From: a virus
Virus record (IMG/VR): IMGVR_UViG_3300030381_000254
Span: 69,982-133,981 of that record
DNA length: 64,000 nt
Reading direction: 5' to 3' (one strand)
Part shown: piece after piece, positions 24,786 to 58,686 of the stretch
Layout of the letters: the number at the start of each line of letters is the position of its first letter
Numbering within the stretch: the stretch's first letter is position 1
Translations under genes and position numbers: made by a program
The notes under the pieces: model-generated
Database searches by the model: none
What the model was told of the DNA's origin: nothing
Seen by the model: the letters and a program-made list of their open reading frames with translations, nothing else

Positions 24786-25368
24786 TTTCAGTTACGAATA
24801 TACCGATTCGATACTCGATATCATCTTCTTTCTTATAATTAACAAATTGATGAAATATTCTATAATATCCATCATCTTCTCTTTGAATAAGATGCGCATC
24901 CCATCCATGAGTAGTTGTTAATTTATCGATTAAATCTTGTAATCTAGATATTTTAGGAGCGTATTCTTTTAATACTTCTATATCTTGAGAAGGATCCATA
25001 AATTCTTTTAATCTTGCAAGTTCTTTATTGGATTCTTCTTCATTCATTATGTCGCTAGTAAACTCAGTTAATTTATACTGCTTAATATCACTAGTACTTT
25101 TAATAGTATTTAGAAATTGTCCTGCTATTTTCTTACTAGAAATTTCAGCAATAACAGCATTATACTCATCCTTAGAGGATATGATATTTCTCATATCCTC
25201 TAATACTTTCATAGATGTAGTAATGCCTAAACTAACAAATACTCCAAATGGTTTAACAAATGTATTCCCATCAACTGAATTTACATAAAATGTTTTAAAT
25301 GCTGGTTGATAAAACACTTCAACCAGTGAATGAATTTTATCTCTATTTATGTTTCCATTAGTAGCCAT
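24763..25368 (-). CDS. Hypothetical protein, 201 aa
   Basis: ORF only. Confidence 0.35.
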   Translation of the reverse strand: MATNGNINRDKIHSLVEVFYQPAFKTFYVNSVDGNTFVKPFGVFVSLGITTSMKVLEDMRNIISSKDEYNAVIAEISSKKIAGQFLNTIKSTSDIKQYKLTEFTSDIMNEEESNKELARLKEFMDPSQDIEVLKEYAPKISRLQDLIDKLTTTHGWDAHLIQREDDGYYRIFHQFVNYKKEDDIEYRIGIFVTENESKGVN

Positions 25369-27085
25369 AACTATTTTTAAAATTTTTTACTTTGAAATAT
25401 TTAAAATTTTGATTATAATTACTAGAGCCATAATTAAATCCATACATAGTATATTCTGGCATCTTAGACTCTTCTTCATGCCATTCTTCCAAGTAATCTT
25501 CAAAATCTGAGATAAGAATCAATATAGCTTCTGGCCCATAATTATCTCTAAAGTATTTTATACCTCTAGCCATTCTTGTTCCACCTCCCATAGATATACG
25601 AGGAACACCTTTTCTTGGATTAATGTTCTTTATGTGCTCACCTAAACAAGTAGACCAAGATATAATATTGTAAGTAAGACCTCTTCCAAGTCGTTTCATC
25701 TTACTAGCAATAGTATTAAGTATTCTATCTACAAGTCTAGTATCCATAGATCCTGACACATCTATTAAAAATACAATAGTAGGATCATTTGAAATAGTAA
25801 CTTTTCTTCTAATAGTTGGAGTAATAACACTTCTATTAATCCCCCTATTATACATATACATTAAATCTTTTTTTGTATCTACTTTTACTACTCTAGATTT
25901 ATAGTTCAACATAACTTCATCTAGAGCCATATCTACTTCATCAGTATCTGTTACTACTCTAGTAGCATCCGGACCACCTGAATTTCCACATCCAACTCCA
26001 CCACCAGAACGAATTTGTCCTAGCTCTCTCTTTTTATCTGCATCATCTCTAGAATCTGTTCCGTGGTCTCTATGAGTTCCTCCTTTATTATTTCCATTAG
26101 GATCTAACTCATTTGTTCCAGAATCTCTATTCCCTTTATATGGACAATCCCTAGGTGTTTTTTGTCCTTGACCATTACCATTTCCAGAACCAGAAGACAT
26201 ACCCATTTCTTCCATCAAATCAGATAGTCCTTGCATTCCTCCTCCTTGAGAAGAACCTCCATCTCCACTACCTAATGCATTCTGTACATCTTCAGCAGTT
26301 ATATTAGAAGTATCTCCATTTCCTCCATTCTTAATTGATACTAGCATCTTAACAAATTGATCTAAGTGCATAATAATCAACATAAGATATTCTGAATAAG
26401 AACGTTCTTTTGGAAATGGTGTAGGATCTGGTAATGCATTATCTAGATGATATCTCTCTGGAATAATTAATTTAATTTTTGTTTCATTCTCCATTTTCTT
26501 GAGAGCTTCATCTATTTGTTTTTTCACTTCTTCATCATCAGTGTGATCTCTCTGATATCTTAATAATTCTGCTTGATAATCCGGAAGTTTTTCTGAAATA
26601 TCTTTCTCCATTTCTTCAATATCATCTTTAGATAATATCTTAGAATTTACTTCCATATCCATAGCTATATTATGAATACTGTGATTTAATACAGGATCAT
26701 CAATTACTCTTTCAATAAGCTTATCCGCAAAATCAATCCCACACTCTTTATTAATTCTATCTATAAGCTCTCCTCTATGATCTCTGAAAGCATTACAGAT
26801 CTGAACATCTAACTCTTCGTGAATTCCATCCAAATGACCCAAATATATATGACCATATTCATGCATAAGTACTCTAAAATCAGTTCTTGGAATTCCTATT
26901 TCAGAACACACTATCTTATAAGTTACGTATCCAGTAGAATCATCTTTATATTTATAACAATATCCTAATTCTGGATTATCTGGATTAAATGGTTTTTCTG
27001 TATTAACCATTAATAAATTTCCAAATCTGCAATAAGTGTTGTCTACAAATCTTTTTATAAACTCTAATTCTGATTGAGTTCTCAT
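25358..27085 (-). CDS. VWA-domain protein with N-terminal HExxH putative metallopeptidase domain (DUF2201-like), partner of the MoxR ATPase
   Basis: The N-terminal LMHEYGHIYLGH is an HExxHxxxxH motif. The middle has a Gly/Ser/Asn/Asp-rich low-complexity linker. The C-terminal VFLIDVSGSMDTRLVDRILNTIASK is a VWA MIDAS motif (DxSGS). Confidence 0.65.
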   Translation of the reverse strand: MRTQSELEFIKRFVDNTYCRFGNLLMVNTEKPFNPDNPELGYCYKYKDDSTGYVTYKIVCSEIGIPRTDFRVLMHEYGHIYLGHLDGIHEELDVQICNAFRDHRGELIDRINKECGIDFADKLIERVIDDPVLNHSIHNIAMDMEVNSKILSKDDIEEMEKDISEKLPDYQAELLRYQRDHTDDEEVKKQIDEALKKMENETKIKLIIPERYHLDNALPDPTPFPKERSYSEYLMLIIMHLDQFVKMLVSIKNGGNGDTSNITAEDVQNALGSGDGGSSQGGGMQGLSDLMEEMGMSSGSGNGNGQGQKTPRDCPYKGNRDSGTNELDPNGNNKGGTHRDHGTDSRDDADKKRELGQIRSGGGVGCGNSGGPDATRVVTDTDEVDMALDEVMLNYKSRVVKVDTKKDLMYMYNRGINRSVITPTIRRKVTISNDPTIVFLIDVSGSMDTRLVDRILNTIASKMKRLGRGLTYNIISWSTCLGEHIKNINPRKGVPRISMGGGTRMARGIKYFRDNYGPEAILILISDFEDYLEEWHEEESKMPEYTMYGFNYGSSNYNQNFKYFKVKNFKNSYGY

Positions 27086-29556: not shown

Positions 29557-30276
29557 TTATTTATTAAGTTTATATAATTCATTAATATCTAAACATTTAT
29601 ATAATACGTTCTCTAACGAGGATGTTAAAGAACAGTGATAGTGACCAAAAAACCATCTACTACATCTTATATTTCTAAAAATATAATCTAAATAATTTCT
29701 ATCTTCTAAAATATTATTATAAATCTCTTCCGTCATGTTACTATCTCTAGTAATCACAGGAAGAAAACTAATTGGAGCCTCATGAGATACTATAATATCT
29801 ACTTTATTAGGAAGATCTCTATATTTCTTTATTGGTCTTTCATCTTCCCACCAAATTCTTTTAGATGATCCATACTTTTCCATCTTAGAGTTATAGTCTA
29901 ATCTAAATTTCATATCAATACTCTGAGCCCCTCCTATTGGATAGATAGTTTTTCCAGATAACTCCATAATTTCATGATCCGGAACATACTTAATTCTTGG
30001 ATAATTATAATAGTCATTATTAAAGTATTCTAATGAATCATGATTTCCTCTTATAGCAAAAATTTCTATATTATTTTTTTCTAATTTTGGTTCTATCTTC
30101 TTATATATATCATCATAATAAGATTTTTTATTAAATCCATCAAAACCAAAATCGCCACATACAATAATATTAGCATCAGCTATATCATATCTATTTATAA
30201 TATTCCATAAATTAGTTTTAATTTCTCCATGCCAATCCGAAGAAAAATATAAATCTCGTTCTTGTCTACTTTTCAT
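29557..30276 (-). CDS. Calcineurin-like metallophosphoesterase (Ser/Thr phosphatase-like)
   Basis: SSDWHGE (D-x-H), VCGDFGFDG (GDxxD) and RGNHDS (GNHD/E) are the metallophosphoesterase motifs I-III. Confidence 0.65.
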   Translation of the reverse strand: MKSRQERDLYFSSDWHGEIKTNLWNIINRYDIADANIIVCGDFGFDGFNKKSYYDDIYKKIEPKLEKNNIEIFAIRGNHDSLEYFNNDYYNYPRIKYVPDHEIMELSGKTIYPIGGAQSIDMKFRLDYNSKMEKYGSSKRIWWEDERPIKKYRDLPNKVDIIVSHEAPISFLPVITRDSNMTEEIYNNILEDRNYLDYIFRNIRCSRWFFGHYHCSLTSSLENVLYKCLDINELYKLNK

Positions 30277-31115
30277 AAAAATGATGTTAATTTAAATTCA
30301 TTAATTACATATGAGATAGAAAAATTGTATAATAAATAATCATATTGAGAATTCCACATTCTTTTTTCTAAGTCTTTTATTAATAACTTAACCGTTTCTA
30401 TATCAGAATTAAAAAATTTATCTAAAAATTCTTTAAATTTAATAGAATCATACCCAGAAAATTCACTAAGTAAATTTTGAATAATATAAAAATTAGATTT
30501 ATTTTGATTTTCTTTATCCTTAGATAAATTCAAAATCTTTTTAAATTTTATATTCAATAAATCCTGATTATTCTGTATTTTTTCAGGAAATTCTATCAAA
30601 GGAAATAATCTTATAGTAGATAAATTAAACTCATCATAAAGATATGAATCCCTAATTGAATCTTTTTTTATCTGAAGACTAGTCTTTTGATGAAATTTTT
30701 TAGAATCAGCTTCTAAAATTAATCCACCACTAAGAATAAAATCTACATATATTACTTTTCGATAAAAAAACTCATCGTCATCAGTTATGTCATTAGCAGT
30801 ACATAAAGATTCCCACTTTTCTCTATTAGAAATCACTATTGGATATTCACTTAAATACTTAATTTTAAATCTATCCAATAAATTTTCTAAAAGAAGTTCA
30901 TTATTATTTTTTTCTCTTTTAGTTAATTGAGAATTCCTCCTAGAAACGATATTGCATTTAATCATGTCTTTATAAACAATTATAGGAATTGGTAAATAAA
31001 AATCATTTGATTTACTAGATACTATATCGAAATTAAACGAGAGTACATCTGAAAGTAATAATATTTCGCTAAAATATTTATTAATTTTTTCTAAATTCTT
31101 TTCATAATTATTCAT
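30273..31115 (-). CDS. Protein with C-terminal DUF559-like (Vsr/PD-(D/E)xK-type) endonuclease domain
   Basis: VIYVDFILSGGLILEADSKKFHQ...KDSIRDSYL... fits the DUF559 pattern D...LxIExDGxxH...D..RDxxL. Confidence 0.4.
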   Translation of the reverse strand: MNNYEKNLEKINKYFSEILLLSDVLSFNFDIVSSKSNDFYLPIPIIVYKDMIKCNIVSRRNSQLTKREKNNNELLLENLLDRFKIKYLSEYPIVISNREKWESLCTANDITDDDEFFYRKVIYVDFILSGGLILEADSKKFHQKTSLQIKKDSIRDSYLYDEFNLSTIRLFPLIEFPEKIQNNQDLLNIKFKKILNLSKDKENQNKSNFYIIQNLLSEFSGYDSIKFKEFLDKFFNSDIETVKLLIKDLEKRMWNSQYDYLLYNFSISYVINEFKLTSFL

Positions 31116-31199
31116 AGTATTATTTTTATAAAGTATGACACAACTACATACTTTTTATTACATTATTAAGTATTTACCCTGATTATCACCGCGTTTTAA

Positions 31200-31230
31200 A
31201 CCTTAAAATTCTTATAAATGAACTATGTTT
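31200..31230 (+). promoter_or_regulatory. Promoter-like motif variant upstream of flotillin-like gene
   Basis: aaaccttaaaattcttataaatgaactatg is one mismatch from the CTTATATATGA core. Confidence 0.4.
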
Positions 31231-31249
31231 AATTTAAAATTAATAATTT

Positions 31250-32758
31250 ATGATTAGTACTTTTATTTTAATCGGAATTATTGTTCTGATTCTAGTAGTT
31301 ATTGTGTTAGTTTCTTATGTAAAAGCACCTCCAAGTCAAGCTTTTATAATCTCAGGTTTAAACAAAAATCCTAGAGTTCTTATCGGTAAAGGAGGATTTA
31401 GATTGCCATTCTTTGAACGATTAGATAAAATCTATCTAGGACAAATTACTGTAGATATAAAAACGGAAACTTCTGTTCCAACTAATGACTTTATTAATGT
31501 AGATGTAGATGCAGTAGCAAAAATTAGAGTAAAACCTACAGATGAAGGAATTAGATTAGCTGGAAAAAACTTCCTTAATATGAAACCTTTAGATATTGCA
31601 AATCAATTGCAAGATTCTCTTCAAGGAAATATGAGGGAAATTATAGGAACTCTTGAACTTAAAGAACTTAATACTAATAGAGATGGATTCTCTGATCAGG
31701 TAATGGAAAAAGCTGCTCCTGATATGGAAAAATTAGGTATTGAGATATTATCTTGTAATATTCAAAATATTACAGATAGAGAAGGGTTAATAAAAGATTT
31801 AGGTGCTGATAATACTTCTAAAATAAAAAAAGAAGCAGCTATTACTAGAATAACTGCTGAAAAAGAAATTAGCATAAAAAGTAGTCAGGCAAATAAAGAA
31901 GCTAATGATTTTAAAGTAGAATCTGAAATGAGGATAGCTGAAAAAAATAATGAACTATCTCTCAAAAAATCAGACTTAAAACTAAAAGAAGATGCTAAAA
32001 AAGCAGAAGCTGATACCGCTTATGAGATACAAAAACAAGAACAGCAAAAAATAATTAATACTAAATCTGTTGAAGCTGAAATTGAAAAAACGAAGAAACA
32101 ACAGATTCTTAGTCAAGAACAAATTATAATTCGTGAAAATGAATTAAAAGCTGAAATAAATAAAAAGGTAGAAGCTGAAAAATATAAAACCGAAAAAGAA
32201 TCTGAGGCAGAAAAGTATAAAACTGAAACTGAAGCAAAAGCAATTCTGGAACAAAGAAAAAGAAATGCTGAGGCTGAAAAATACGAAACAGAACAAAAAG
32301 CAGAGGCTATGAAAGCTGAAGCAGATGCCATTAGATACAAATTAATCCAAGAGGCAGAAGGTATAAAAGCAAAAGGTGAAGCAGAAGCTTATGCAATTCA
32401 ACAAAAAGGTATAGCTGAAGCAGAAGCTATGAAACAAAAAGCAGAAGCTTATAAATTATATAATGGTGCTGCTGTTGCTGAAATGATGATAAAAATACTT
32501 CCAGAAATGGCAGCAAATATTGCTAAACCTATGGAATCTATTGATTCTGTAAATATCTATGGTACTAATGGTAATGAGGTTTCTGGAGTAACTGGTAATA
32601 TTCCAGTAATAGTTAAACAAGTATTTGATACTATGAGTCAAGCTACTGGAGTAGATATGAAAGAAATACTGAAAACTGGTACAATAGAAGCCGCTACCAC
32701 TAGAAATATTAATATCTCTAAAGATATTGATGAACTAAAGGATAATATTGTAAAATAA
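31250..32758 (+). CDS. Flotillin-like SPFH/Band-7 protein with E/A-rich coiled-coil repeats
   Basis: An N-terminal TM helix is followed by an SPFH-like domain (IISGLNKNPRVLIGKGGFRLPFFERLDKIYLGQITVDIK...). Next come tandem AEAEKYKTE / EAEAMKQKAEAY repeats, as in flotillin EA repeats. The DNA-level tandem repeats lie at about 32160..32460. Confidence 0.65.
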   Translation: MISTFILIGIIVLILVVIVLVSYVKAPPSQAFIISGLNKNPRVLIGKGGFRLPFFERLDKIYLGQITVDIKTETSVPTNDFINVDVDAVAKIRVKPTDEGIRLAGKNFLNMKPLDIANQLQDSLQGNMREIIGTLELKELNTNRDGFSDQVMEKAAPDMEKLGIEILSCNIQNITDREGLIKDLGADNTSKIKKEAAITRITAEKEISIKSSQANKEANDFKVESEMRIAEKNNELSLKKSDLKLKEDAKKAEADTAYEIQKQEQQKIINTKSVEAEIEKTKKQQILSQEQIIIRENELKAEINKKVEAEKYKTEKESEAEKYKTETEAKAILEQRKRNAEAEKYETEQKAEAMKAEADAIRYKLIQEAEGIKAKGEAEAYAIQQKGIAEAEAMKQKAEAYKLYNGAAVAEMMIKILPEMAANIAKPMESIDSVNIYGTNGNEVSGVTGNIPVIVKQVFDTMSQATGVDMKEILKTGTIEAATTRNINISKDIDELKDNIVK

Positions 32759-32764
32759 ATAAAA

Positions 32765-32797
32765 TAGAGGGATAAAATTATCCCTCTATTTTTTCTT
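32765..32797 (+). terminator. Rho-independent terminator after flotillin-like gene
   Basis: Hairpin tagagggataaaattatccctcta followed by tttttt. Confidence 0.7.
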
Positions 32798-32856
32798 CTC
32801 TAAAACTCTTATAGATGAAAAGAAAATAATTAACTTTATAAATATTTTAATAAATT

Positions 32857-33606
32857 ATGAAAAATTTAAAAGATACAATTTTTATTCACTATGGAACAAA
32901 TAAAATTAAAGAGAAATTATTTAAAACAATAAAGAATAGAAGAGGGTGGAATAAACCAAGTGGAGGAATATGGGCTTCTCCACTAAACTCTAATCATTCT
33001 TGGAGAAAATTCTGTTTGGATGAAAATTTCAATATCGGAACTTTAAAGAAACATATATTATTTAAAATAAATCCTAACAGTAAAATATATACCATAGATT
33101 CTTATCTAGATCTTATTAAGTTAAAAAAATATTGGATCTATGATAAAAATAGAATATTTAATGAAGTTATGATAGATTATGAGAAGATGATGAAAGATGG
33201 ATATGATGGAATATATCTTACTGAAGATGGGGAACATGATACTAGATTTTCTCCATATGGCAGGTATGACTGTAGTATGGGTGGAAAGTTAGATCTGTAT
33301 GGATGGGACTGTGAGAGTATTGTGATATTTAACAAAAATATTATAAAACAAATCAAAAGAAAAAGATTAAAACTTTCCAAAAGAAATTATAAGAGACAAT
33401 CAATAATTATAAATACACAAAAATCAAATAATATTAATAACCCTGATATATTAGAATGGGATAGAAATGAATTAATGAATAATACCATATTTATACCAGG
33501 GAAGAACTATAAATCTAAGAAAGCATATTATAGAGATATAGAAAAAATATTATATGAAACTGAAGATGATCCATCAAGAATAGTAAAATTATATGGAGGA
33601 AAATAA
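32857..33606 (+). CDS. Hypothetical protein, 249 aa
   Basis: ORF followed by a strong bidirectional terminator. Confidence 0.4.
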   Translation: MKNLKDTIFIHYGTNKIKEKLFKTIKNRRGWNKPSGGIWASPLNSNHSWRKFCLDENFNIGTLKKHILFKINPNSKIYTIDSYLDLIKLKKYWIYDKNRIFNEVMIDYEKMMKDGYDGIYLTEDGEHDTRFSPYGRYDCSMGGKLDLYGWDCESIVIFNKNIIKQIKRKRLKLSKRNYKRQSIIINTQKSNNINNPDILEWDRNELMNNTIFIPGKNYKSKKAYYRDIEKILYETEDDPSRIVKLYGGK

Positions 33607-33609
33607 AAA

Positions 33610-33645
33610 CAAGGAAGAGGATTAATCCTCTTCCTTGTTTTCTTG
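33610..33645. terminator. Bidirectional rho-independent terminator between convergent genes
   Basis: A perfect palindrome caaggaagaggattaatcctcttccttg is flanked by an A-run upstream and a T-run downstream. Confidence 0.7.
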
Positions 33646-35742
33646 TTCTACATAATTATTTGCTACTAGTAAATTATTATATTCTAACTGATAGTAAGGT
33701 TTAACTGATATTAACTCTAATCCATCTAATCTCTTACCATTATTTGAAATTTTACATTTCTTAACTTCAAAATATTCTCCTAAATCAATAGCTTTTGGAG
33801 TTGCTTTATAGTTAATAGAACTGTAAAGATTAGTAAGAATATTCTTTATATCTGTATTTGGAATTTTATCACCTATCTTAAAATTTTGAAATATAGTCTT
33901 AACTAGTAATTCTTTATTAAATACTACTACTCCTAATTCTCTTTCAATATATGTTCTATTATATCCAAGAGATTTTAATCTGTCAGGTTTTAATGTAGTG
34001 TAATAAGATCTAATATTATCATGTTCCCCTATTTGCTCTAATGCAATACTTCTAGCTTCATCGGACATATCATATTCACAAAGTAATCTAAGTTTATCTT
34101 TAAATAAAGATAGTCGATCGTATTTATAAAAAAATGCTTCAATTTCTTGATTTACTGAATATCCTATATCTAACTTTTCATTTATAGTACTAAATACAGT
34201 AAATCGATCTGCATAATCATACTGTTGTATTTCAAATACTCTAAGATCGTTTACTTTAACTAAATTATTAAATGTTGGAAATAATCCGGTACCTCCATGA
34301 GTATTTACTGAAACATAATTATCTTTATAATTTGCAGATTTAGCTACATATTGATAAGTTAAAGCTAGTGTAGATTTTGAAGATTCGGTATCACATCTTT
34401 CATACGCATACAATAAATCTTTAGTAGCTTTTTCTTTTCTCTCTATCTCCTTCATAAACTCCTCTTGCGAAACTTTTCTATAATCCGCAGTTACTCTATA
34501 AAAAAATTCGGCGGAATTTTTCCACGGATTTTCAGATTTTCTTTGACGTCCTAAGATTTGTGGAAGATCATCACTTATATCTACTGCTAATGTATCTAAA
34601 TTAGCGTCACTGAATATAAAAGTTCTTGCACAATAACTATCAAAATCAGCTCCTAGATAAACCGTTGAAGTACAAAATGTAAACATTGGAAAACTCTCTC
34701 CTTTTTCAATAATAGGTACATGTCCTATACTAAAAAATTTTCCTAATTTCTTCCTTATTTTCTTTTTATTATCTTCTGTCTTAGCACATAATATTAATAC
34801 TTGATCTGAACTTAAATTACATTTTTTGATAATACTAATAATATGATTTACAGAATTCATAAATAATACTGCTTCCCTAGACTCTATTTCTACTGGGAAA
34901 CCATTAATAATTCTAGTAGCCCTTTCAAAATTTCCATTAAGATAAGATTGTATAATTTCTCCTGCTTTAGTACCTACGGATTTCATTGTTCTTACCTTAA
35001 GAGAAGGTTTAATAACTCTAGTAAAATCTTCAGTTAACCAATCTAGTTCTATATATGGAAGACCATCAAATTCATCTAACATATTCAAATATTTATCTAC
35101 CATTGGTGTAGCTGAGACAAATATAGCTGAATGAGATTTCTTAAGATATCCTAAAAATTCGTTCTCAGTATTACTCTTAAACCTAGAATCATGTAAGATA
35201 CTTTGAAATTCATCTATTATTGTATAGAAAGTATCAAACTTACCTAGAGCAATTAAAATATCTTGTACTATCCTATAAGAATCGTACGTAACTAAGATTT
35301 TATAAGGTTTACCGTAGAAATCTCTCATATTAATATAATCTTTAATTTCTCTCATTAATCGATTATATATATCTTTTTTTCTTTGATTAGGATCAATACA
35401 ATCTTTAAGCTTTTCCTCAAATATATCTCCACTGGACATCTGAGTAAATTTATCTAATTTACTCAAATCTTTATCAATTCCTGGATCAGAATCCAATAAC
35501 TCATTTTTTACTAAATAAACATCCTTGTCATGTTTACTATATTTACTGTCAAGAAGAGCTATTCTAGGACTACATAATATACAATTTTCTATTCCATTAA
35601 TTACTCTTTCTGTAAAACCACAACCAGGAATTTGTTTATTTATTATACATTTTGGTGGTAATTTATAAAAGAAAAAATCTTTCCAATCACTTAAAAATCT
35701 AATTCCTCCTGGTACAATCCAAGATTTTAATTTATTTATCAT
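33622..35742 (-). CDS. SF2 helicase-like protein with atypical Walker A, 706 aa
   Basis: Motif I-like IPGCGFTE has no Lys. DEFQ resembles the motif II DExx box. FVSATP resembles the motif III SAT. It is oppositely oriented within the plus arm. Confidence 0.4.
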   Translation of the reverse strand: MINKLKSWIVPGGIRFLSDWKDFFFYKLPPKCIINKQIPGCGFTERVINGIENCILCSPRIALLDSKYSKHDKDVYLVKNELLDSDPGIDKDLSKLDKFTQMSSGDIFEEKLKDCIDPNQRKKDIYNRLMREIKDYINMRDFYGKPYKILVTYDSYRIVQDILIALGKFDTFYTIIDEFQSILHDSRFKSNTENEFLGYLKKSHSAIFVSATPMVDKYLNMLDEFDGLPYIELDWLTEDFTRVIKPSLKVRTMKSVGTKAGEIIQSYLNGNFERATRIINGFPVEIESREAVLFMNSVNHIISIIKKCNLSSDQVLILCAKTEDNKKKIRKKLGKFFSIGHVPIIEKGESFPMFTFCTSTVYLGADFDSYCARTFIFSDANLDTLAVDISDDLPQILGRQRKSENPWKNSAEFFYRVTADYRKVSQEEFMKEIERKEKATKDLLYAYERCDTESSKSTLALTYQYVAKSANYKDNYVSVNTHGGTGLFPTFNNLVKVNDLRVFEIQQYDYADRFTVFSTINEKLDIGYSVNQEIEAFFYKYDRLSLFKDKLRLLCEYDMSDEARSIALEQIGEHDNIRSYYTTLKPDRLKSLGYNRTYIERELGVVVFNKELLVKTIFQNFKIGDKIPNTDIKNILTNLYSSINYKATPKAIDLGEYFEVKKCKISNNGKRLDGLELISVKPYYQLEYNNLLVANNYVEQENKEED

Positions 35743-36098
35743 AATTTATATTTATTTATTACAGAATCCAGTTAAATTGTCTTATTTTTATGAAGTCAAA
35801 GGAGTTTCCCTTTAACTCAATTGTAAGGATAATAAGTTATAATAAACGTATTTTGTCGATTTTATTGAGATAATTTTAACCATATTCTAATATAAGATAG
35901 TTATTGAAAGAAATTCGACACCTTTTCCTTTCTTTCCCTCCTTTCAATGGGAGGGAAAGAATCAATTTTAATAGAATAATTTCCTATAACACTTTATAGG
36001 GTTTCATTCAAGTTTAAAAGGAAAAAAGTAGAAGGGCTAACGCCTTTGTCTTCAGAAATAAAGGACAAAAATAAATAAGTAAGATTAGTTAATCTTAC

Positions 36099-36350
36099 TT
36101 ATGAAAAAGTTACGATGATAAATCCGATATATAAATATATTAAGATACTTAATATATAAAAATCTCTCATTATTTTAGATTCTTTTAAGTACATACCTAT
36201 ACTATTATCATCGATAGAACTCTTTAAATTACATAATGTATTTATTGAACTACTGTTCTTTATTAAAATTCCGATTAAAAGAACAGTAAACCAAACTGCT
36301 ATACCTGGAAATAAAAATAAACCTTCCAGATTATTCATAAATTTTCTCAT
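36099..36350 (-). CDS. Small membrane protein, 83 aa
   Basis: Two hydrophobic helices. The promoter-like motif lies upstream on the minus strand and a terminator hairpin lies downstream at 36078..36097. Confidence 0.4.
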   Translation of the reverse strand: MRKFMNNLEGLFLFPGIAVWFTVLLIGILIKNSSSINTLCNLKSSIDDNSIGMYLKESKIMRDFYILSILIYLYIGFIIVTFS

Positions 36351-36388
36351 ATATTTAAATTAAAGTTATTGTATTCTTTAAAAGTTTA

Positions 36389-36415
36389 TCTTTCATATAT
36401 AAGGCTTTGAAGGAA
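36389..36415 (-). promoter_or_regulatory. Conserved phage promoter-like motif on minus strand
   Basis: The reverse complement reads ccttcaaagccttatatatgaaaga, about 40-65 nt upstream of the minus gene 36099..36350. Confidence 0.5.
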
Positions 36416-36571
36416 TAATAAAAGAAAGAAAAAATTAGCACCGTTTTCACAAACAGTGCTAATCATAATTTGATAATATCGAACTTAATTGCTTTAGACG
36501 ACAATTTTACTAATTGTCTTTAACTATGTCCATTTATAAGGATTTTAAGGGTTTTAAATTATAATAGTTTA

Positions 36572-37367: not shown

Positions 37368-38198
37368 ATGGTACATTTTGAAAAAATAAAGTTAACAAAA
37401 GGAATTTTTAAAGGAACTGAAGAGATAGAATTAGAAATTCCAGACATTAAATGGGTATTGTGGGATGGTGTTCCTCGTGGAGGAAAAAGAATTAATCATG
37501 TGAATTATTGGTCTATATTAAAAGTTTCAGATGAAGAAGAAGCAAAATATGTTAAGGATAAGTTAAAGAATATTAGAGCACATCAGATGTACTCATATGA
37601 ATTAATTAAAAATAAGATATGGGTTCTTGAATTAAATGATGTGGATAAGACGTATGATATACCACAAATGACAACAGCACATGATTTATACAGTACTTAT
37701 TTAAAAGATTTAGTATTTGTAGAATATACTAAGTATTTTAGGATATCTTCAGTTTTTAGAATAAAAGAAATAGATCATCCTGATTCTGTAACAGTACAAT
37801 CTGTAATATTGAATGGAAGATTTTGTTTTAATAGACCCTGTTATAATATTATGACTACTATTAATAATTGTCTTCCGAAAATGATAAATTTTTTAGGAAC
37901 AGGAGATATTTTTGTAGAAGTATTTAGTGGAAATATTGCAAATAAGTGGTGGTATTCTGCATTTAACAAAGCTATATTTAGTTATGATTTTGACCTAAAT
38001 TTTAATGAAGGAGATAATATAATTTGGGATGCTGATGTTCCAGATAGTTTTAATATTGATGATCTGTTAAGTTTATCTGTAGTTGATAAAAGTGAAGAAA
38101 ATGTTTCAGAAAAAGTAAAAGAGATTGAGAAAAGATTTAAAGAGTTTGAAGAAATCTTTTTAAAAATTTCTAAATTTAATGAACAATTTAAACAATAA
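37368..38198 (+). CDS. Hypothetical protein, 276 aa
   Basis: ORF only. Confidence 0.4.
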   Translation: MVHFEKIKLTKGIFKGTEEIELEIPDIKWVLWDGVPRGGKRINHVNYWSILKVSDEEEAKYVKDKLKNIRAHQMYSYELIKNKIWVLELNDVDKTYDIPQMTTAHDLYSTYLKDLVFVEYTKYFRISSVFRIKEIDHPDSVTVQSVILNGRFCFNRPCYNIMTTINNCLPKMINFLGTGDIFVEVFSGNIANKWWYSAFNKAIFSYDFDLNFNEGDNIIWDADVPDSFNIDDLLSLSVVDKSEENVSEKVKEIEKRFKEFEEIFLKISKFNEQFKQ

Positions 38199-38240
38199 TT
38201 ATGTTAAGGAGATAGAGATTTAATTTCTATCTCTTAATTT

Positions 38241-38266: not shown

Positions 38267-38383
38267 TTTTAAATAACTATAATTATTATAGTAGTAATAA
38301 TGAAGAATGCTGAGATAGTGTAAAATTATTAAGAAGAGTATTATAGAGATATTGTACAAATTACATAGTTATGTGGATAAGGG

Positions 38384-38426
38384 ATAGAAGAGAACTAGTT
38401 CTCTTCTATTTATTATTTTGCTTTTT
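38384..38426 (+). terminator. Rho-independent terminator in GroES upstream region
   Basis: Hairpin atagaagagaactagttctcttctat followed by a T-rich tract. Confidence 0.6.
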
Positions 38427-38534: not shown

Positions 38535-38792
38535 ATGAAAGTATTACAATCAAAAGTTTTAGTACAAGTAGATAACGATCAATTACAACAGAAGCTTGGT
38601 AATTTTACAGTTCCTGTAGAAGATATTGAGAAAGCTACTGTTATCGAGGTTGGAAATGAAGTTAATAAAGATGGAGAGATTTTAAAGCCTGGGGATAAGG
38701 TGTATATTTATCCAAAATCTGGAAAGGAATTCATGGAAAACGGAGAGAAATATCGTGTTATTACTTTAAATGAAATTATTGTAGTATTGTAA
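38535..38792 (+). CDS. groES: Co-chaperonin GroES / gp31-like
   Basis: 85 aa, KVLVQV...TVIEVGNE...GDKVYIYPKSGKEF...YRVITLNEIIVVL. It lies directly upstream of the GroEL homolog. Confidence 0.65.
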   Translation: MKVLQSKVLVQVDNDQLQQKLGNFTVPVEDIEKATVIEVGNEVNKDGEILKPGDKVYIYPKSGKEFMENGEKYRVITLNEIIVVL

Positions 38793-38812
38793 AATTTAAA
38801 ATTATTAGAAAA

Positions 38813-40438
38813 ATGGCAGAAGGAAAAAAAATTATTAAAGGAGCTGAATCACGTGAGAAAGTAATTAGTGGTGTTATCAAGATTGCAGATGCAGTAAAAA
38901 CAACTATTGGTCCCGCAGGAAAACATGTAGTAATTGCTAACAGTATGACTGGTCCTGAAATTTCTCGAGATGGTAGTATTGTTAGTAAATCTATATCTTT
39001 TAAAGATCAAGAAGAAAATATTGGAGCTCAGATTGTTCGTAAAGCAGCTGCAAGTACTGAAGATCAAGCTGGTGATTCAACCTCAACTACAGTAGCTCTC
39101 ATTGAAGAAATGGTGATTAAAGGTCAAAAAGCAATTCGTACTGGAGCTAATGTAAATGAAATTAAAGATGGTATGAAGAAAGCTCAGAAATGGGTTACTA
39201 ACTATATTGCTAAGAATTCTATTAAGGTAGATGGTGATCTTAATAAAATTCATAAGGTAGCAACAATTTCTGCTAACAATGATTCTACTATTGGAGATCT
39301 AATAGTATCATGTATGGAAAAAATCGGAACTGATGCAGAAATTCAAGCAGATTATTCTTCTGGTATTGATACGACTATTGATATTGTTCAAGGGTTTAAA
39401 CTTACTAAAGGATGGTCTAGTCCACAGTATGTAAATAGTCCGTCTGATGCAAAATGTGTAATGGAAAATCCATACATTATAGTAGTTGGAGAGAATATTA
39501 GTAATTTCAATCAGGTAGGTCCTATTATCGAACCTTTATGTAAAAGTGGTCGTCCTTTCTTGATTGTATGTAATGATATGTCTGATCAGGTAAATGGTAT
39601 TTTTATTCTTAATACTCTTCAAGGAAATATTCGTTGTTGTGTAGTTAAAGGAGTAGACTTTGGAGATAATAGAAAAAATATTATGGCGGATTTAGCTGTA
39701 TTTACTGGTGGAACATATTTGGATCCAGAAAATGGAATTTCAATCAATCAGGCTACATTAGAGGATTTTGGTACAGCAAATAAAGTTGTAGTATCTAGAG
39801 ATTCTTGTATTATCTATGAAGGAAATGGAGATAAGAGTATTATTAGTGAAAGAATTGAAACTTTGAAAAATCGAATTTCTGATCCTGACATTAGTGATTA
39901 CGATAAGAAGAAATATAGCTCTAGATTATCTCAATTAGCTGGGGGTATTGGATTAATTAAAGTTGGTTCTGCTAGTGAAATTGAAAGGGCAAATTTAAAA
40001 GCAACCGTTGAAGATGCTATTTTGGCATCTAAGAGTGCTTTGGCAGAAGGTTGTTCTCTCGGATCTGGATATACTTATTTCAAAGCATCACTTGAATTGG
40101 CTAAAGATAAGGAGTTCTGGAAAACATTGGTTGATGATGAGATTGAAGGAGCAAAAATTCTTCAAGAATCATTGCCAATTATTATGAAATCCGTAGTAGA
40201 AAATTGTGGAGTATCTCCTGATGTAGTATTAGAAAAGATTAAAACATCTAAACCTGGTGTAGGTTTCAATGCAAAAACAAAGAAGTATTGTAATCTTGAA
40301 GAAGAAGGTGTTTTAGATTCTTCTAAAGCATTAAGAGTAGCACTCGAAAATAGCGTATCTGCTGCATCTATGATATTATTGATTGATTGTACAGTTGTAG
40401 ATGAAGAAGATAAAAACGAAGATAATTTAATTAAATAA
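38813..40438 (+). CDS. groEL: Chaperonin GroEL-like, 541 aa
   Basis: The N-terminus KIIKGAESREKVISGV...TIGPAGKHVVIA...GDSTSTTVALIEE matches the GroEL ATP-binding motifs. It lacks the C-terminal GGM repeat. Confidence 0.8.
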   Translation: MAEGKKIIKGAESREKVISGVIKIADAVKTTIGPAGKHVVIANSMTGPEISRDGSIVSKSISFKDQEENIGAQIVRKAAASTEDQAGDSTSTTVALIEEMVIKGQKAIRTGANVNEIKDGMKKAQKWVTNYIAKNSIKVDGDLNKIHKVATISANNDSTIGDLIVSCMEKIGTDAEIQADYSSGIDTTIDIVQGFKLTKGWSSPQYVNSPSDAKCVMENPYIIVVGENISNFNQVGPIIEPLCKSGRPFLIVCNDMSDQVNGIFILNTLQGNIRCCVVKGVDFGDNRKNIMADLAVFTGGTYLDPENGISINQATLEDFGTANKVVVSRDSCIIYEGNGDKSIISERIETLKNRISDPDISDYDKKKYSSRLSQLAGGIGLIKVGSASEIERANLKATVEDAILASKSALAEGCSLGSGYTYFKASLELAKDKEFWKTLVDDEIEGAKILQESLPIIMKSVVENCGVSPDVVLEKIKTSKPGVGFNAKTKKYCNLEEEGVLDSSKALRVALENSVSAASMILLIDCTVVDEEDKNEDNLIK

Positions 40439-40455
40439 TAATTTTAAATATAATG

Positions 40456-40489
40456 CCTACCTAGAGACTTCTAGGTAGGTTTTATTTTA
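40456..40489 (+). terminator. Rho-independent terminator after groEL
   Basis: Hairpin cctacctagagacttctaggtagg followed by ttttatttta. Confidence 0.7.
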
Positions 40490-46816: not shown

Positions 46817-47872
46817 ATGGGAAAAGATAATCAAAAGAAATTACTAGCATTAGATTATGGATATAGTTCTCTGAAGACAAGTTTTTATGATGAAAACGGG
46901 GTTCTTCAATTTGAGAAATTTATAAGCGCAGCAGCTAAATTGGGAGGAAAAGATTTAGTAGAAGATCCTAATGATGATACTATATTTTGTTTAAATGGTG
47001 AGTATTATGTTTTAGGAACTCCGGCACTTAAAGTTCCTAGATCTTTATTATATAGATTAGAGACATATGAAGATATGAAAGCTACTTATCCTATTTGGCT
47101 TTCTTATTTATTGAAAAGATATGGCGGTGATAATTGGTTAGATAGATTTGATCATGTAATTCTAGGTTTATCTTTAGCATTTAGCGATAAAGCTTCAGAT
47201 TTATTAGATCATTTATATGAATCATTAAATATTACTAAAGATAATTTCTTTCTCTGTCTTCCTCAAGGATTAAGTTGTAAACTTGCTTATCAGCAATTTG
47301 GTTTGGATTTGAGAGAAGTATCTAAAAAGAATGATGTGAAAATGCGAAATTACTTAATAGTTGATGGAGGATTTTTAAGTATTGATGCTGCACAAGTTCT
47401 TGATGGAAAATCTTCTGCTGGTGCTGCTATAGGATTAGCTAATACTGGGGTTATCTGTATAGTATATAAAATTATAGATTATTTATTCCAGAATTTTGAG
47501 ATGAAGATGAGTGTAAAAGAAGGTCAGACTGTATTGGATAATAACGGCTTATTTACACGAAGAATGAGAGAATATGATATTTCAGATAAAGTAAAAGAAT
47601 TTACTAGAGAATATCTTATTAATGTAATTAAACTATTAGAAGAAAAGTTTAGTGAATCACTAGATTCCATTGAAGGAATATTAGTTTGCGGAGGTCTTGC
47701 TTATTTCTTTAATAAAATGAAAGATGATGAGATTTTAAATAAAGAAATAGAAAAACACTTTCCAAAATCATTTATTAAGTTAGGTGGAAATGGTAGTGAT
47801 AGTGAATTCTATAATTCAATCAGTTATCTTAAAATTGCGGAAAAATTAATCGATGAAGGTCGTTTAAATTAA
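46817..47872 (+). CDS. Actin-like ATPase (ParM/Alp family)
   Basis: Phosphate-1 is LALDYGYSSLKTSF. Phosphate-2 is IVDGGFLSIDAA. The adenosine/GG motif is ILVCGGLAYFF. At 351 aa it has ParM-like size. Confidence 0.6.
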   Translation: MGKDNQKKLLALDYGYSSLKTSFYDENGVLQFEKFISAAAKLGGKDLVEDPNDDTIFCLNGEYYVLGTPALKVPRSLLYRLETYEDMKATYPIWLSYLLKRYGGDNWLDRFDHVILGLSLAFSDKASDLLDHLYESLNITKDNFFLCLPQGLSCKLAYQQFGLDLREVSKKNDVKMRNYLIVDGGFLSIDAAQVLDGKSSAGAAIGLANTGVICIVYKIIDYLFQNFEMKMSVKEGQTVLDNNGLFTRRMREYDISDKVKEFTREYLINVIKLLEEKFSESLDSIEGILVCGGLAYFFNKMKDDEILNKEIEKHFPKSFIKLGGNGSDSEFYNSISYLKIAEKLIDEGRLN

Positions 47873-55728: not shown

Positions 55729-56709
55729 AGTAAACCGTCAACCTTCATTACATGAGTATAGTACTTTTGCAATGAAGTTAAGAATTCATGAGGATTATAC
55801 AATACATTTTCCTATTCAAGTATGTGAACCATTAAATGCTGACTTTGATGGTGATACTGTATCAATACAGTTAGTTCCGCCTGAAGCAGCTGAAGAGACT
55901 TATGAAAGAATGAGTCCTAGATATGTTACAATTTATAAAAAGAATAATGAACCTATTTATAAATTTAATCACGAAACACTTAATGGTTTAGCAGTTGCGA
56001 CTGAATATTCATACTCTGATTTGGAAGAATTGAAAGATCCTAAATATTTTTATACTGATTATGTTCAGTTATTAAAGGATGTAGAAATAGAAAAGAAAAT
56101 CAAAGTTGGAACACCGATTGTATTTACAGGAAAAATAGGGAATGTAGATTATCAATCTAAAGTTACAAGTTATGGTAGACTTCGTATTTCTAAAATACTT
56201 GATGCTGATATAGATAAAATTGGTATATTTAGTAATGAGTTTGAACGTATTAGTGCTAAGAGTGCAGCTAAGTTAAGTCTTTATTTAAATCAATTCGAAG
56301 ATGGAGTTGAAAAGAGAAAAGCACTTACTAAATTTGCTCTTCGCGTAGTTAGCATGGCTGGAGTAGTAACGTTTGATTATAAAACACTGTATGCTGATTG
56401 TGATACGGAGACTTATAAGAGAATTTGTAACGTAGCAGATTCTAAAGAACTTACAGATAAACAGAAACTTTTGATAATGACTCAAGAATTTAAGAAATAT
56501 GAGGACGAAGTTTCTGCAAGTTTTAGTTCTGATTTGAAAAATGAACTTGATAGAGCAGCTCGTGTTAAATTATCATCTATTGTAGCAATGTCAATGCCAC
56601 AGTTTATAACTTCAGGAGTTGATGAAAAACCTGTAATTACTCGTGGAACATTGTTATCTGGTTACACAGAGAAAGATTATCAATTACATGCAATAGAAAA
56701 TCGAAGCTT
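55729..56709 (+). CDS. rpoC: RNA polymerase beta' subunit, exon 2 (catalytic NADFDGD region); 3' end approximate
   Basis: VNRQPSLHEYSTFAMKLRIHEDYTIHFPIQVCEPLNADFDGD aligns to E. coli NRAPTLHRLGIQAFEP...NADFDGD. A bridge-helix-like SGY motif lies near the end. The exon end was chosen at the U at 56709, 70 nt upstream of the P element, the same spacing as in intron 1. Confidence 0.6.
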
Positions 56710-57201
56710 ACAATCTATTAAAGTTAGTGGTGTTAAAATATTAAGCTCGAATATGGTAGCCCACTTAAAATAACAATTAAATGCTGGAAAGAATATGTAA
56801 ATATAAAATCAGCAACTTATATAATCTTTAAATCTATTTTATGGCGAGATTGGAAAAAGTTTTAGAAATTTTAAAAGTAATTGGAGGAATTGCTAAAACT
56901 ATGCTTTGTGGAATGGAAGAGTATAGAAGAATTCAAGAAACAAGAGCATATAGAGAAAATCAAAAGAAAAAAGTAAAATATTTACCAAAGCCAAAGAAAA
57001 GATATAAAAGAAATAAATAAGATCAACGACTATGTATTGTTAGATTAAACAAAGTTTAATCATGATATAGTCTAATCCTATGTGATAAACATAGGCAGGA
57101 TGGGATTTTAGGAAGCGCTTTTAATTTATATTATAGCCTAATATCCTTGAATGACCTTCGAGCGGATATTTAACTCGTCAAATATCTTTCCTTTTAAATA
57201 G
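56710..57201 (+). mobile_element. Group I intron 2 in rpoC (~490 nt), boundaries approximate
   Basis: P element AAATGCTGGAAAG is at 56779, Q element AAATCAGCAAC at 56806, R element ATCAACGACTATG at 57022 and S element CATGATATAGTCT at 57061. A P9 hairpin lies at 57076..57095. G at 57201 is the only omega-G candidate consistent with phase, given the in-frame stop at 57170. The intron contains a 59-aa Lys-rich ORF at 56841..57020. No canonical U.G P1 pairing was found, so the 5' splice site could instead be at 56718 or 56724. Confidence 0.55.
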
Positions 57202-58357: not shown

Positions 58358-58665
58358 TGGGAACTATTAAATTTGAAATAGATCTTCCAGAATTTGAAAA
58401 AGAATTAAGTTTGAATTTAATTATTCGTAGAGATGGTGAGGTAATTTATAATACCTCATCCTCTTCTACAAATAACTCTTTTTCAAAAAATAATGGTAGA
58501 TTGGAAAATTCTGTAGAAAAAGTAGATAAAATAATTCCCCCTATCGTGGAAGGTAGTGGAAATTCATTATCTAATAATATAGGAAATAAGGTAAGAGAAC
58601 AATCTATTACATCAAAAACTCCTAAAGGAAGAGGAGGTAATTTGATGAATTTGACAGATATTTAA
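58357..58665 (+). CDS. Hypothetical protein between rpoC and rpoB, 102 aa
   Basis: ORF whose start overlaps the rpoC stop. Ser/Asn-rich. Confidence 0.35.
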   Translation: MGTIKFEIDLPEFEKELSLNLIIRRDGEVIYNTSSSSTNNSFSKNNGRLENSVEKVDKIIPPIVEGSGNSLSNNIGNKVREQSITSKTPKGRGGNLMNLTDI

Positions 58666-58686
58666 TAAAAAGAAGAGAATTTAATT

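Follow-up and report, generated by a model that had tools for sequence, protein, structure and literature searches.

The window, a stretch of 64,000 nucleotides of DNA from a virus, carries on its + strand two adjacent open reading frames, groES at 38535-38792 (85 aa) and groEL at 38813-40438 (541 aa), the latter starting 20 nt past the groES stop codon. The 336-nt intergenic region preceding groES is limited at its 5' end by a terminator-like hairpin (38207-38235, + strand; 13 pairs in the stem, then a T-rich tail) located after the upstream gene at 37368-38198, and it harbors a second terminator-like hairpin of putative function at 38382-38411 (+ strand). The groEL stop (TAA TAA) is followed 16 nt further on by a hairpin resembling an intrinsic terminator (40455-40480, + strand) with an 11-pair stem, five G-C pairs and a T-rich tail. 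Terminator-like sites number four in this region, compared with 0.5 expected from shuffles, and as predicted they bracket groES and groEL as one unit. A sigma-70 promoter scan of the region returned 10 sites, below the 15.8 found in shuffles, and we therefore propose no promoter. The G+C content of the genome is about 28%, and Shine-Dalgarno motifs are missing from the phage genes, a trait shared with Bacteroidota. The earlier note had read this DNA as that of a phage, and the gene content of the window confirms it: several tail-fibre genes, a gene for a repetitive fibre protein of 2708 aa, and split, phage-type RNA polymerase beta/beta' genes that are distant kin of those of jumbo phages AR9, PBS1 and S6. 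By RNA polymerase beta, the nearest cultured relatives are the AR9 and S6 group at 22-26% identity. No tRNA genes were found in the window. Megablast gave no match for the locus among 50,697 phage records, nor did tblastn for the open reading frame at 25358-27085, used for phage placement.

Profile searches and predicted folds agree that the two genes encode both a GroES and a GroEL, as the earlier note had claimed. The GroEL protein matches Pfam Cpn60_TCP1 (PF00118) with 168 bits (E 3.3e-49) over profile positions 1-489 of 490 and PHROG 5725 'chaperonin groEL' (E 2.9e-121). Searching the PDB with phmmer retrieved a reconstructed ancestral Fibrobacteres-Chlorobi-Bacteroidetes chaperonin (E 5.6e-116) and E. 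coli GroEL (E 1e-108), the matches spanning residues 5-531, and the AlphaFold2 model (pLDDT 86.8) contains no built-in lid insertion. Compared with E. coli GroEL/GroES (PDB 1AON), the pair shares the domains, fold, gene order, mobile loop and the aspartates D52, D87, D398 and D495, although identity to E. coli/Salmonella GroEL is 35%. Also conserved are T30, G32, P33, G53, T89, T91, I150, S151, N153, G416, N479 and A480, and the nucleotide-binding and hydrolysis positions that differ carry the conservative variants K51R, G88S, T90S and G415S. The nucleotide-binding motif (39071-39088, + strand) accordingly reads GDSTST in residue alignment, in place of the E. coli GDGTTT (G86-D87-G88-T89-T90-T91); T90S is family-wide and G88S is found in 12 of 44 family sequences, with D87, T89 and T91 kept. 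Some relatives carry an intein inserted at this motif. Together, the data place GroEL among the true group I chaperonins, with a three-domain fold and an essentially intact site for ATP binding and hydrolysis.

The contact surfaces of the ring differ more from those of E. coli GroEL. At the apical positions Y199, Y203, F204, L234, L237, L259, V263 and V264 the window protein has W, Q, Y, G, I, N, I and L, so that five remain hydrophobic or aromatic while Y203Q, L234G and L259N do not. Y199W and L259N are family-wide, position 203 is Q or N in the family, and L234G is found in the window phage only. The key inter-ring contact E461 is serine across the family, accompanied in the window by R452K, A109T and S463D, and F44 is variable in the family. 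Given the replacement of GroES- and substrate-contact residues and of E461, neither lid binding nor a double-ring architecture can be assumed.

The smaller protein is a true Cpn10 lid in which the mobile loop is kept. It matches Pfam Cpn10 (PF00166) over the whole profile length with 29 bits (gathering score 21.1; E 1.1e-6) as well as PHROG 3188 'co-chaperonin GroES', and when its AlphaFold2 model (pLDDT 85.4) was compared with the PDB by Foldseek, the best 33 matches were all Cpn10, GroES or T4 gp31 (TM 0.61-0.74). Alignments place the mobile-loop region at about residues 14-31 (NDQLQQKLGNFTVPVEDI; 38574-38627, + strand), its K-L-G-N-F-T-V-P aligning with A-G-G-I-V-L-T of E. coli such that the glycine and the following F-T-V correspond to G24 and I25-V26-L27, the middle residue being polar in the window. 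Across the family, the consensus reads (I/V)G-N-(F/L/I)-x-(V/I)-P. The loop, no longer than that of GroES, is modelled with the least confidence (pLDDT 66-73), in keeping with its expected flexibility. The roof, in contrast to that of E. coli, is truncated: the segment lying between the positions of E. coli G44 and G62 holds 12 residues in the window and 8-10 in the rest of the family compared with 17 in E. coli, and residues 40-54 of the model contain no strands and form no roof beta-hairpin. A roof of 8-12 residues is found in all 15 distinct family GroES proteins, and one of 17-18 residues in 19 of 22 other viral GroES. Since the protein is too short and too divergent for tblastn, which gave no match even at E 1, GroES in the relatives was found by an iterated HMM run over the open reading frames of the fetched loci. 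An 85-aa open reading frame upstream in Vibrio phage K471, GroES-like by size, was rejected because it did not match this HMM.

The GroEL protein ends in VVDEEDKNEDNLIK (LIDCTVVD-EEDKNEDNLIK). Only 11 residues follow the position aligned to E. coli D523, and this tail (EEDKNEDNLIK; 40403-40435, + strand, from translation and alignment) has five acidic residues and two lysines but no Gly or Met, as opposed to the 25 residues of E. coli/Salmonella, which include (GGM)4M and end in GGMGGMGGMGGMM. Residues 535-541 have AlphaFold2 pLDDT values below 50. The locus is present in four independent metagenome assemblies that are about 97.5% identical in DNA, two of which are scaffolds of about 370 kb; each gives the 541-aa protein, unchanged but for one substitution, and the tail is the same in all. 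The identity of the tail in four assemblies, together with the stop codon and the terminator-like hairpin behind it, bears out the earlier note on the absence of GGM, which is real and due neither to truncation nor to a frameshift. The note's further suggestion that the missing tail marks something special was not supported, as absence is the usual state in viral GroELs: GGM-like motifs are present in 7/44 family and 10/59 other viral sequences and in 31/36 cellular ones. Family tails have a median length of 10 residues and a G+M fraction of 0.10; for cellular GroELs the values are 20.5 residues and 0.43. The specialised client proposed in the earlier note, such as a capsid or fibre protein, finds neither support nor contradiction in the sequence.

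Loss of the GGM repeat may be neutral decay under relaxed constraint, possibly aided by AT-biased mutation against GGN codons, and no adaptation to a special client, a reading to which we give slightly less than an even chance. The family tails are hypervariable, ranging from 7 to 20 residues and being acidic/Lys-rich, Cys-rich or GMMM-ended, and this wide variation argues for weak constraint and not for a designed chamber floor; judged from these sequences, the tails would fit relaxed constraint at least as well as a specialised client. In most other viral GroELs, with or without a GroES of their own, the tail is likewise degenerate or absent. The low genome G+C is in keeping with such decay, as is the fact that E. 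coli tolerates deletion of the GroEL tail with modest kinetic effects. Conversely, the family tails are non-random, in that they are consistently short, acidic at their start and poor in Gly and Met, and the loss coincides with the truncated roof, the variable F44 and the polar apical face. Covariation of roof and tail length was rejected as independent evidence: the Spearman correlation of 0.47 overall reflects a single phylogenetic event and vanishes outside the family (0.16, p 0.48, n=22).

Exploring the relatives, we found GroES directly upstream of GroEL on the same strand in 33/33 related loci, at a distance of 1-190 nt. These loci reside on contigs of 47-401 kb, most of which exceed 130 kb, and share a conserved downstream synteny of ligase-like, dUTPase and MreB-like genes; the pair and the synteny are kept across divergent jumbo-phage contigs whose GroELs are 52-63% identical. 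In IMG/VR, where a query with the single protein gave one locus, the family alignment was used as query instead, and the relatives are catalogued there as viral genomes. At 90% identity the family, found on jumbo-phage contigs, splits into more than 120 clusters. One relative, P0070, lies on a 376-kb NCBI contig (JAGAYY010000025.1) labelled as a Bacilli bacterium MAG. A neighbour-joining tree recovered the family as monophyletic in 100/100 bootstraps on a long branch, with another viral contig as sister. Searched exhaustively with HMMER, 1.84 billion representatives contained no full-length protein above 39% identity outside the family, and among 185,579 species genomes the closest cellular GroELs, which are Bacteroidales, were at most 40% identical (best retrieved, 39.9%). 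As nodes beyond the viral sister had 3-31% bootstrap support, we claim no Bacteroidota origin; Bacteroidales GroELs are only the most similar cellular ones. The pair is probably a two-gene groES-groEL unit, inherited vertically within a clade of jumbo phages that are AT-rich and come from metagenomes of animal guts, and would serve the phage as a folding machine of its own.

Phage-encoded GroES and GroEL pairs, as well as phage GroELs without GGM, have already been described, and the earlier note's claim that such a pair is uncommon is not supported. A co-chaperonin was present on 133 of 337 (40%) virome GroEL contigs, which fall into GroES>GroEL and GroEL>GroES clades (Marine et al. 2017, ISME J, PMC5649160), and both genes are present in some phages (Bracher et al. 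2020, PMC7185714). Annotated pairs are found in the cultured Flavobacterium phages vB_FspM_immuto and vB_FspP_elemo and in Cellulophaga phage Calle_1. Besides the 33 family loci, all of which have the pair, the sample held about 60 distant viral GroEL loci; GroES was detected within the fetched flank in 23 of these, and directly upstream in 20. For the occurrence of GroEL together with GroES in jumbo phages, a literature search gave incidental mentions only. Pairs of marine and Bacteroidota phages (those named above, Cellulophaga phi38:1, Bacteroides phages of DAC16 type and marine viromes) resemble that of the window in having a group I GroEL adjacent to a Cpn10 of its own, a degenerate or absent GGM tail, and a mobile loop with glycine followed by asparagine and hydrophobic residues. 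The closest cultured-phage GroEL, that of DAC16 (39% identity), has an unannotated, roof-truncated GroES of 87 aa 13 nt upstream. However, these pairs are 30-39% identical to that of the window and lie outside the fully supported clade of its family, and their phages have genomes of 60-180 kb, unlike the animal-gut jumbo phages with complete-size scaffolds of about 370 kb. Furthermore, loss of the roof hairpin has been tied to GroEL>GroES order (Marine et al. 2017, PMC5649160), whereas in the window family it accompanies GroES>GroEL order.

Three features, as far as alignments tell, set the family apart: a short, roof-truncated GroES, an acidic/Lys GroEL tail of about 10 residues, and substitutions of the apical face. 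The changes specific to the family suggest a private ring-lid interface, based on apical Y199W, Y203Q/N and L259N and the GroES loop G-N-(F/L/I)-x-(V/I)-P, and a differently lined and somewhat roomier chamber, based on shortening of the roof from 17 to 8-12 residues, replacement of a Gly/Met-rich tail of about 20-25 residues by about 10 charged ones, and the variable F44. During infection, the phage would make its own heptameric ring or rings, the apical domains of which would bind non-native phage proteins; the phage's own GroES would then cap the ring via its mobile loop, and upon ATP hydrolysis the folded protein would be released as in GroEL/GroES, possibly freeing the phage from the capacity or specificity of the host chaperonin. 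For oligomer formation, lid binding and encapsulation we infer by analogy with GroEL/GroES (Fenton, Xu, Hunt): Fenton et al. in 1994 reportedly defined the apical residues, Xu et al. in 1997 are said to have solved the GroEL-GroES structure, and T4 gp31 was reportedly found by Hunt et al. in 1997 to lack the roof hairpin and enlarge the chamber. A stronger version, that the family has an orthogonal, co-adapted chaperonin whose private chamber, of greater size or different lining, does not cross-react with host GroES or GroEL and serves a few large phage proteins such as the jumbo-phage capsid protein, would draw on the roof-poor lid, the polar-shifted apical face, the apparent loss of the hydrophobic GGM/F44 floor and the altered contact E461S; we consider it rather unlikely. 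If true, it would make this the first lidded chaperonin encoded entirely by a phage that could be studied structurally.

Less probable still is that the two proteins do not function as a pair, GroES serving the host GroEL as T4 gp31 and RB49 CocO do, and the phage GroEL working without a lid. All phage chaperonins characterised biochemically, namely EL gp146, OBP gp246 and AR9 gp228, are lid-independent (PMC9598537), two being single rings (PMC9598537; PMC7185714); in addition, truncation of the roof hairpin is shared with gp31/CocO, and several GroES-contact residues of GroEL are altered. The window GroEL resembles these lidless proteins in being encoded by a jumbo phage, in having a Cpn60 fold and in missing the GGM tail. 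Nevertheless, it is a classical group I GroEL, with 35-40% identity to cellular proteins compared with 21-22% to AR9 gp228 and about 24%, over 29% of the length, to those of EL-like phages, and its model lacks a built-in lid. This low identity (about 21-24%), together with a cognate GroES that is present and conserved, led us to reject membership in the lidless clade. Similarly, although gp31 and CocO are phage-encoded lids of Cpn10 fold without a roof hairpin, similarity to them is at the level of fold only (gp31, structure 1G31: Foldseek TM 0.67, 11% identity, E 4e-3). T4, which has no GroEL of its own, relies on that of the host for gp31, a longer protein (111 aa) whose mobile loop is extended, whereas the window lid is shorter than GroES (97 aa in E. 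coli), its loop is not extended, and it is paired with a ring of its own; membership in the gp31/CocO group was therefore rejected. The strict co-occurrence and adjacency in all related loci also speak against separate functions, and the family-specific changes of the GroES loop (G-N-F/L) parallel those of the GroEL apical face, the pattern expected of a co-evolving private interface.

Recent capture of a host groESL as an auxiliary gene, with the odd tail an assembly or annotation artefact, is scarcely credible: the groES>groEL order is that of bacteria, the nearest cellular GroELs are Bacteroidales and the Bacteroidota-like lack of Shine-Dalgarno motifs would fit such a source, but cellular identity peaks at 39.9%, the long-branch clade has full support and a viral sister, divergent jumbo phages share pair and synteny, and the tail recurs in four assemblies with a terminator-like hairpin behind it, which refutes a recent host copy for practical purposes. 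We know of no housekeeping GroEL at most 40% identical to all other cellular GroELs, and the equally remote idea that the contig is bacterial and groESL the cell's housekeeping pair would need one; aside from the deposition of P0070 as a Bacilli contig, it is contradicted by the fibre and split RNA polymerase genes, the lack of tRNA genes in the window and the listing of relatives as viral genomes.

We favor vertical inheritance of a two-gene unit and regard the pair as a real and old feature of this entire clade of jumbo phages from the gut; the genomic observation itself will not surprise a specialist. To our knowledge, a complete phage-encoded lidded system is known from sequence surveys and has never been characterised: the phage chaperonins studied biochemically (EL, OBP, AR9) are lidless, and the phage lids examined so far (gp31, CocO) make use of the ring of the host. 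With its abundance, a compact lid of 85 aa and a short-tailed ring, the family is a convenient study system. It could show by what means a virus adjusts the size and lining of the chamber and the specificity of the lid, whether the components of phage and host are orthogonal to each other, and which phage proteins depend on the chaperonin.

The 541-aa product of groEL (38813-40438, + strand; a Cpn60) is, by domain and predicted fold, GroEL: its match to Pfam Cpn60_TCP1 is full-length (E 3.3e-49), PHROG 5725 'chaperonin groEL' (E 2.9e-121) and solved GroEL structures (E 1e-108 to 6e-116) are matched too, and its AlphaFold2 model has a pLDDT of 86.8, with values <50 in the last seven residues only. 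The 85-aa product of groES (38535-38792, + strand; a Cpn10 co-chaperonin) is GroES on the same kinds of evidence. It scores 29 bits against Pfam Cpn10 (curated cut-off 21.1; E 1.1e-6) with the whole profile covered, matches PHROG 3188 'co-chaperonin GroES', and its AlphaFold2 model (18 homologues as input) reaches a pLDDT of 85.4, the best 33 Foldseek matches in the PDB being Cpn10, GroES or T4 gp31 only (TM 0.61-0.74). The pair is present exactly where the earlier note had placed it, both genes on the + strand and 20 nt apart. The 336-nt spacer upstream of groES carries two terminator-like hairpins, and 16 nt past the end of groEL comes a strong one with an 11-pair stem and a T-rich tail; the region has four such sites where 0.5 would be expected. 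Given the hairpins on both sides, groES and groEL look like a self-contained bicistronic unit. Genes for replication and nucleotide metabolism surround the operon on the + strand, and the structural module lies elsewhere, on the - strand. Between the strand modules (~30000-36500), where G+C is lowest (23-24%), GC skew changes sign (about -0.25 to +0.25) and coding passes from the - to the + strand; this stretch may mark a replication origin or the border of divergent transcription modules.

Close relatives of this GroEL, carried on AT-rich jumbo-phage contigs from animal-gut metagenomes, form what we call the family. At residue level its ATP machinery is intact: comparison with E. coli GroEL, whose numbering we use, revealed conservation of D52, D87, T89, T91, D398, D495 and others. 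The ATP site also bears family signatures (K51R in 44/44, T90S in 43/44), and the window GroEL reads GDSTST where GDGTTT is canonical. The apical face, which binds substrate and the GroES loop, is altered family-wide, with Y199W in 44/44, L259N in 42/44, F204Y in 35/44 and Tyr203 changed to Q, N or H; L234G occurs in the window GroEL alone. At the inter-ring contact, E461 is Ser and R452 mostly Lys. Family GroES proteins keep the mobile loop, (I/V/L)-G-N-(F/L/I)-x-(V/I)-P, in the window as K-L-G-N-F-T-V-P. Their roof-hairpin segment (E. coli G44 to G62) spans 8-12 residues in all 15 distinct proteins, versus 17 in E. coli; among 22 other viral GroES proteins, 19 have 17-18. Following the established GroEL/GroES cycle, the phage would assemble its own ATP-driven ring, cap it with its own lid via the mobile loop and fold phage proteins inside the chamber. 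Because the family-specific changes on the loop side and the apical side are coordinated, a private lid-ring interface is a plausible conjecture, as was likewise speculated for Asn/Ser-loop clusters by Marine et al. 2017 (PMC5649160).

The absence of a GGM tail, claimed in the earlier note, was confirmed: the window GroEL ends ...LIDCTVVD-EEDKNEDNLIK, 11 residues past the position aligned with D523, versus 25 in Salmonella/E. coli, which end GGMGGMGGMGGMM. Its lack is less unusual than had been thought, given that GGM-like motifs were found in only 7/44 family and 10/59 other viral GroELs, versus 31/36 cellular ones. Cellular GroELs have a median tail of 20.5 residues (G+M fraction 0.43), family ones 10 (0.10) and other viral ones 15 (0.20), and the GroELs of Flavobacterium phage elemo and Cellulophaga phage Calle_1 end almost directly past the last strand. 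Some family members (L012, L013, P0048, P0057, P0060, P0105, P0107, P0112, P0115 and P0116, a subset with no clade status implied) carry Cys-rich tails instead of GGM, e.g. KKECCCGGDHSDPGLGLM, KKDCCCCAGGQGDPMMM and GEGCCGCHCHNN, and the GroEL tail of Bacteroides phage DAC16 is also Cys-bearing (...SACNCTQNPMM). By analogy with mycobacterial GroEL1, which has a His-rich tail, such tails may be metal-binding or redox-active.

The floor of the GroEL chamber is lined by F44 and the C-terminal tails, and the T4 gp31-GroEL complex has a larger chamber. Position 44 varies within the family, being F in 18 sequences, T in 14 and M in 4, and is Met in the window. Since the truncated roof recalls T4 gp31 and the tail is half the usual length, one may conjecture a chamber that is larger inside and lined differently; the correlation between roof and tail length represents one phylogenetic event. 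Neutral decay of the tail fits equally well, and GroEL tails are indeed hypervariable within the family. The fuller reading, an orthogonal lidded chaperonin whose remodelled chamber is dedicated to jumbo-phage proteins, we hold to be rather unlikely. Together, the pairing and the missing tail are borne out, and the interpretation given in the earlier note is partly supported; the sequence singles out no client. That the tail is an artefact was rejected, as four independent metagenome assemblies (two of them scaffolds of 369,783 and 370,915 bp), which match the window over the operon at ~97.5% identity, all carry this 541-aa GroEL with a single substitution and its tail unchanged.

GroELs 55-63% identical to that of the window form >120 clusters (90% identity) in a large protein database, many of them on contigs of 100-391 kb. 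An iterated Cpn10 HMM was run over the ORFs of 92 loci retrieved from IMG/VR, ENA, Logan, NCBI and INPHARED. A Cpn10 ORF (83-97 aa) precedes groEL on the same strand in all 33 close-family loci (contigs of 47-401 kb, mostly >130 kb) at a gap of 1-190 nt, with a 65-aa ORF in between in three. Downstream, family loci and the window also share a ~120-aa ORF and a ligase-like gene of ~500 aa, followed by dUTPase and MreB-like genes; as judged from these loci, the pair is a clade feature. Beyond the family representative (55% identity), some fragments and versions with insertions, an exhaustive HMMER scan of 1.84 billion representatives of 50%-identity clusters returned no full-length protein above 39%. 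This is stronger evidence than a scan of 185,579 prokaryotic species genomes (one each), biased because it was seeded by peptide patterns, in which cellular GroELs, mostly from Bacteroidales or other Bacteroidota, reached at most 40% identity. In a neighbour-joining tree of 105 non-redundant family, other viral and cellular GroELs (531 columns), the family was monophyletic in 100/100 bootstraps with the viral contig L082 as sister (87%); support at deeper nodes was low, at 3-31%. A copy recently taken from the host and ending normally in the complete assembly, the alternative that the earlier note had set against its own reading, is rejected by these searches, by the clade with its viral sister and by the tail shared among the four assemblies. 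The nearest cellular GroELs are from Bacteroidales and the nearest cultured-phage GroEL is from Bacteroides phages.

The pair itself is less unusual in phages than the earlier note held. Marine et al. 2017 (PMC5649160) reported that 133 of 337 virome contigs with GroEL also carried a co-chaperonin, defined GroES>GroEL and GroEL>GroES clades and concluded that aquatic viruses with GroEL more likely than not own a GroES; Bracher et al. 2020 (PMC7185714) mention in passing phages with both. Annotated GenBank pairs occur in Flavobacterium phages immuto (GroES>GroEL) and elemo (GroEL>GroES), this host group accounting for 73 of 272 GroEL-positive phage records, and Calle_1 has the order Cpn10-ORF-GroEL. 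Of the ~60 more distant viral GroEL loci fetched, 23 are flanked by a GroES, which lies directly upstream in 20. The closest INPHARED GroELs are those of Bacteroides phages DAC16, DAC19, DAC20, DAC22, DAC23 and SJC03 (38.6% by tblastn, 39.2% by pairwise alignment), the match lying under a 'hypothetical protein' feature in each. DAC16, the one of the six whose upstream GroES was examined (MT074137.1, 176197-178096; locus L001), encodes a 540-aa GroEL and, 13 nt upstream, an 87-aa GroES, also called hypothetical (iterated Cpn10 HMM, E 8.6e-25), with its roof truncated to 8 residues. Several INPHARED matches (H7, H8, H12-H17; loci L173-L176) are bacterial sequence labelled 'phage': Salmonella WGS contigs, 'Acinetobacter phage MD-2021a' contigs in which housekeeping genes flank groS-groL, and UNVERIFIED_ORG Staphylococcus, Enterococcus and Listeria 'phage' contigs. 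Such records inflate tallies of GroEL-carrying phages, and we used them as cellular references only.

Some relatives carry additions at this pair of genes. Five family GroELs (P0061, P0064, P0071, P0079, P0122) and P0203, a GroEL 35% identical, measure 861-873 aa owing to a ~325-aa insertion exactly in the ATP-binding motif, GDG|T(S/T)T (window equivalent 39071-39088). Within the insertion, LAGLIDADG and intein-associated homing-endonuclease domains score above Pfam thresholds; it starts with Pro, not Cys or Ser, ends ...THN followed by Thr, and contains a Cys in an 'MQCIKV' block and a 'DHLW' motif; it looks like a class-3-type intein. The window GroEL is intein-free, and titles and abstracts found by a full-text literature search (intein, GroEL, chaperonin) report no GroEL intein. 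Small ORFs of 65-90 aa with no known domain separate groES from groEL in loci L007-L009 (~5807-6004) and in Calle_1 (L183, 2199-2471), an arrangement noted in Cellulophaga phage phi38:1 (Marine et al. 2017, PMC5649160).

By gene content the window is phage. Its G+C is about 28%, and no tRNA genes were found in it. A 2708-aa ORF with many repeated fibre-like modules (9549-17675, - strand) matches dozens of tail-fibre PHROGs, in 10-18 stretches per PHROG, and has no Pfam match; two ~900-aa tail-fibre proteins follow (2595-5324 and 5379-8090, - strand). On the + strand lie an MreB/ParM-like actin homologue (46817-47872; PHROG 691 'partition protein') and split multisubunit RNA-polymerase genes (55772-62225), including a beta'-like fragment (55772-56773) and a 1062-aa beta-like protein (59037-62225) whose nearest cultured relatives, the Staphylococcus/Bacillus jumbo phages S6, PALS_2, AR9 and PBS1, are only 22-26% identical. 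An NAD-ligase-like gene is also present. Where the coding strand switches, a 502-aa protein (31250-32758, + strand) carries SPFH/Band 7 (E 1.9e-22) and flotillin (E 2e-9) domains; a flotillin-like membrane scaffold is an unusual phage gene. Among the 65 non-overlapping ORFs of at least 90 aa in the whole window, GGAG, GAGG or AGGA occurs at -20 to -4 in five, not above the 9% background; the phage thus makes no use of Shine-Dalgarno sites, a trait typical of Bacteroidota. A related NCBI MAG contig labelled 'Bacilli bacterium' (JAGAYY010000025.1, 376 kb) probably owes that label to a binning artefact.

Domain, fold and active site place the pair in group I GroEL/GroES, and it would work like that system; it departs from it in the GGM tail and the roof hairpin, neither of them defining. 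The window GroES is not a member of the gp31/CocO kind, which it matches at fold level only. Nor does the GroEL, 21-22% identical to AR9 gp228, belong to the lidless giant-phage chaperonins, which need no lid (PMC9598537). Of the kinds already described, the viral GroES>GroEL operon reported by Marine et al. and present in cultured Bacteroidota phages comes nearest, and within such operons the family constitutes a distinct, abundant and previously uncharacterised jumbo-phage group.
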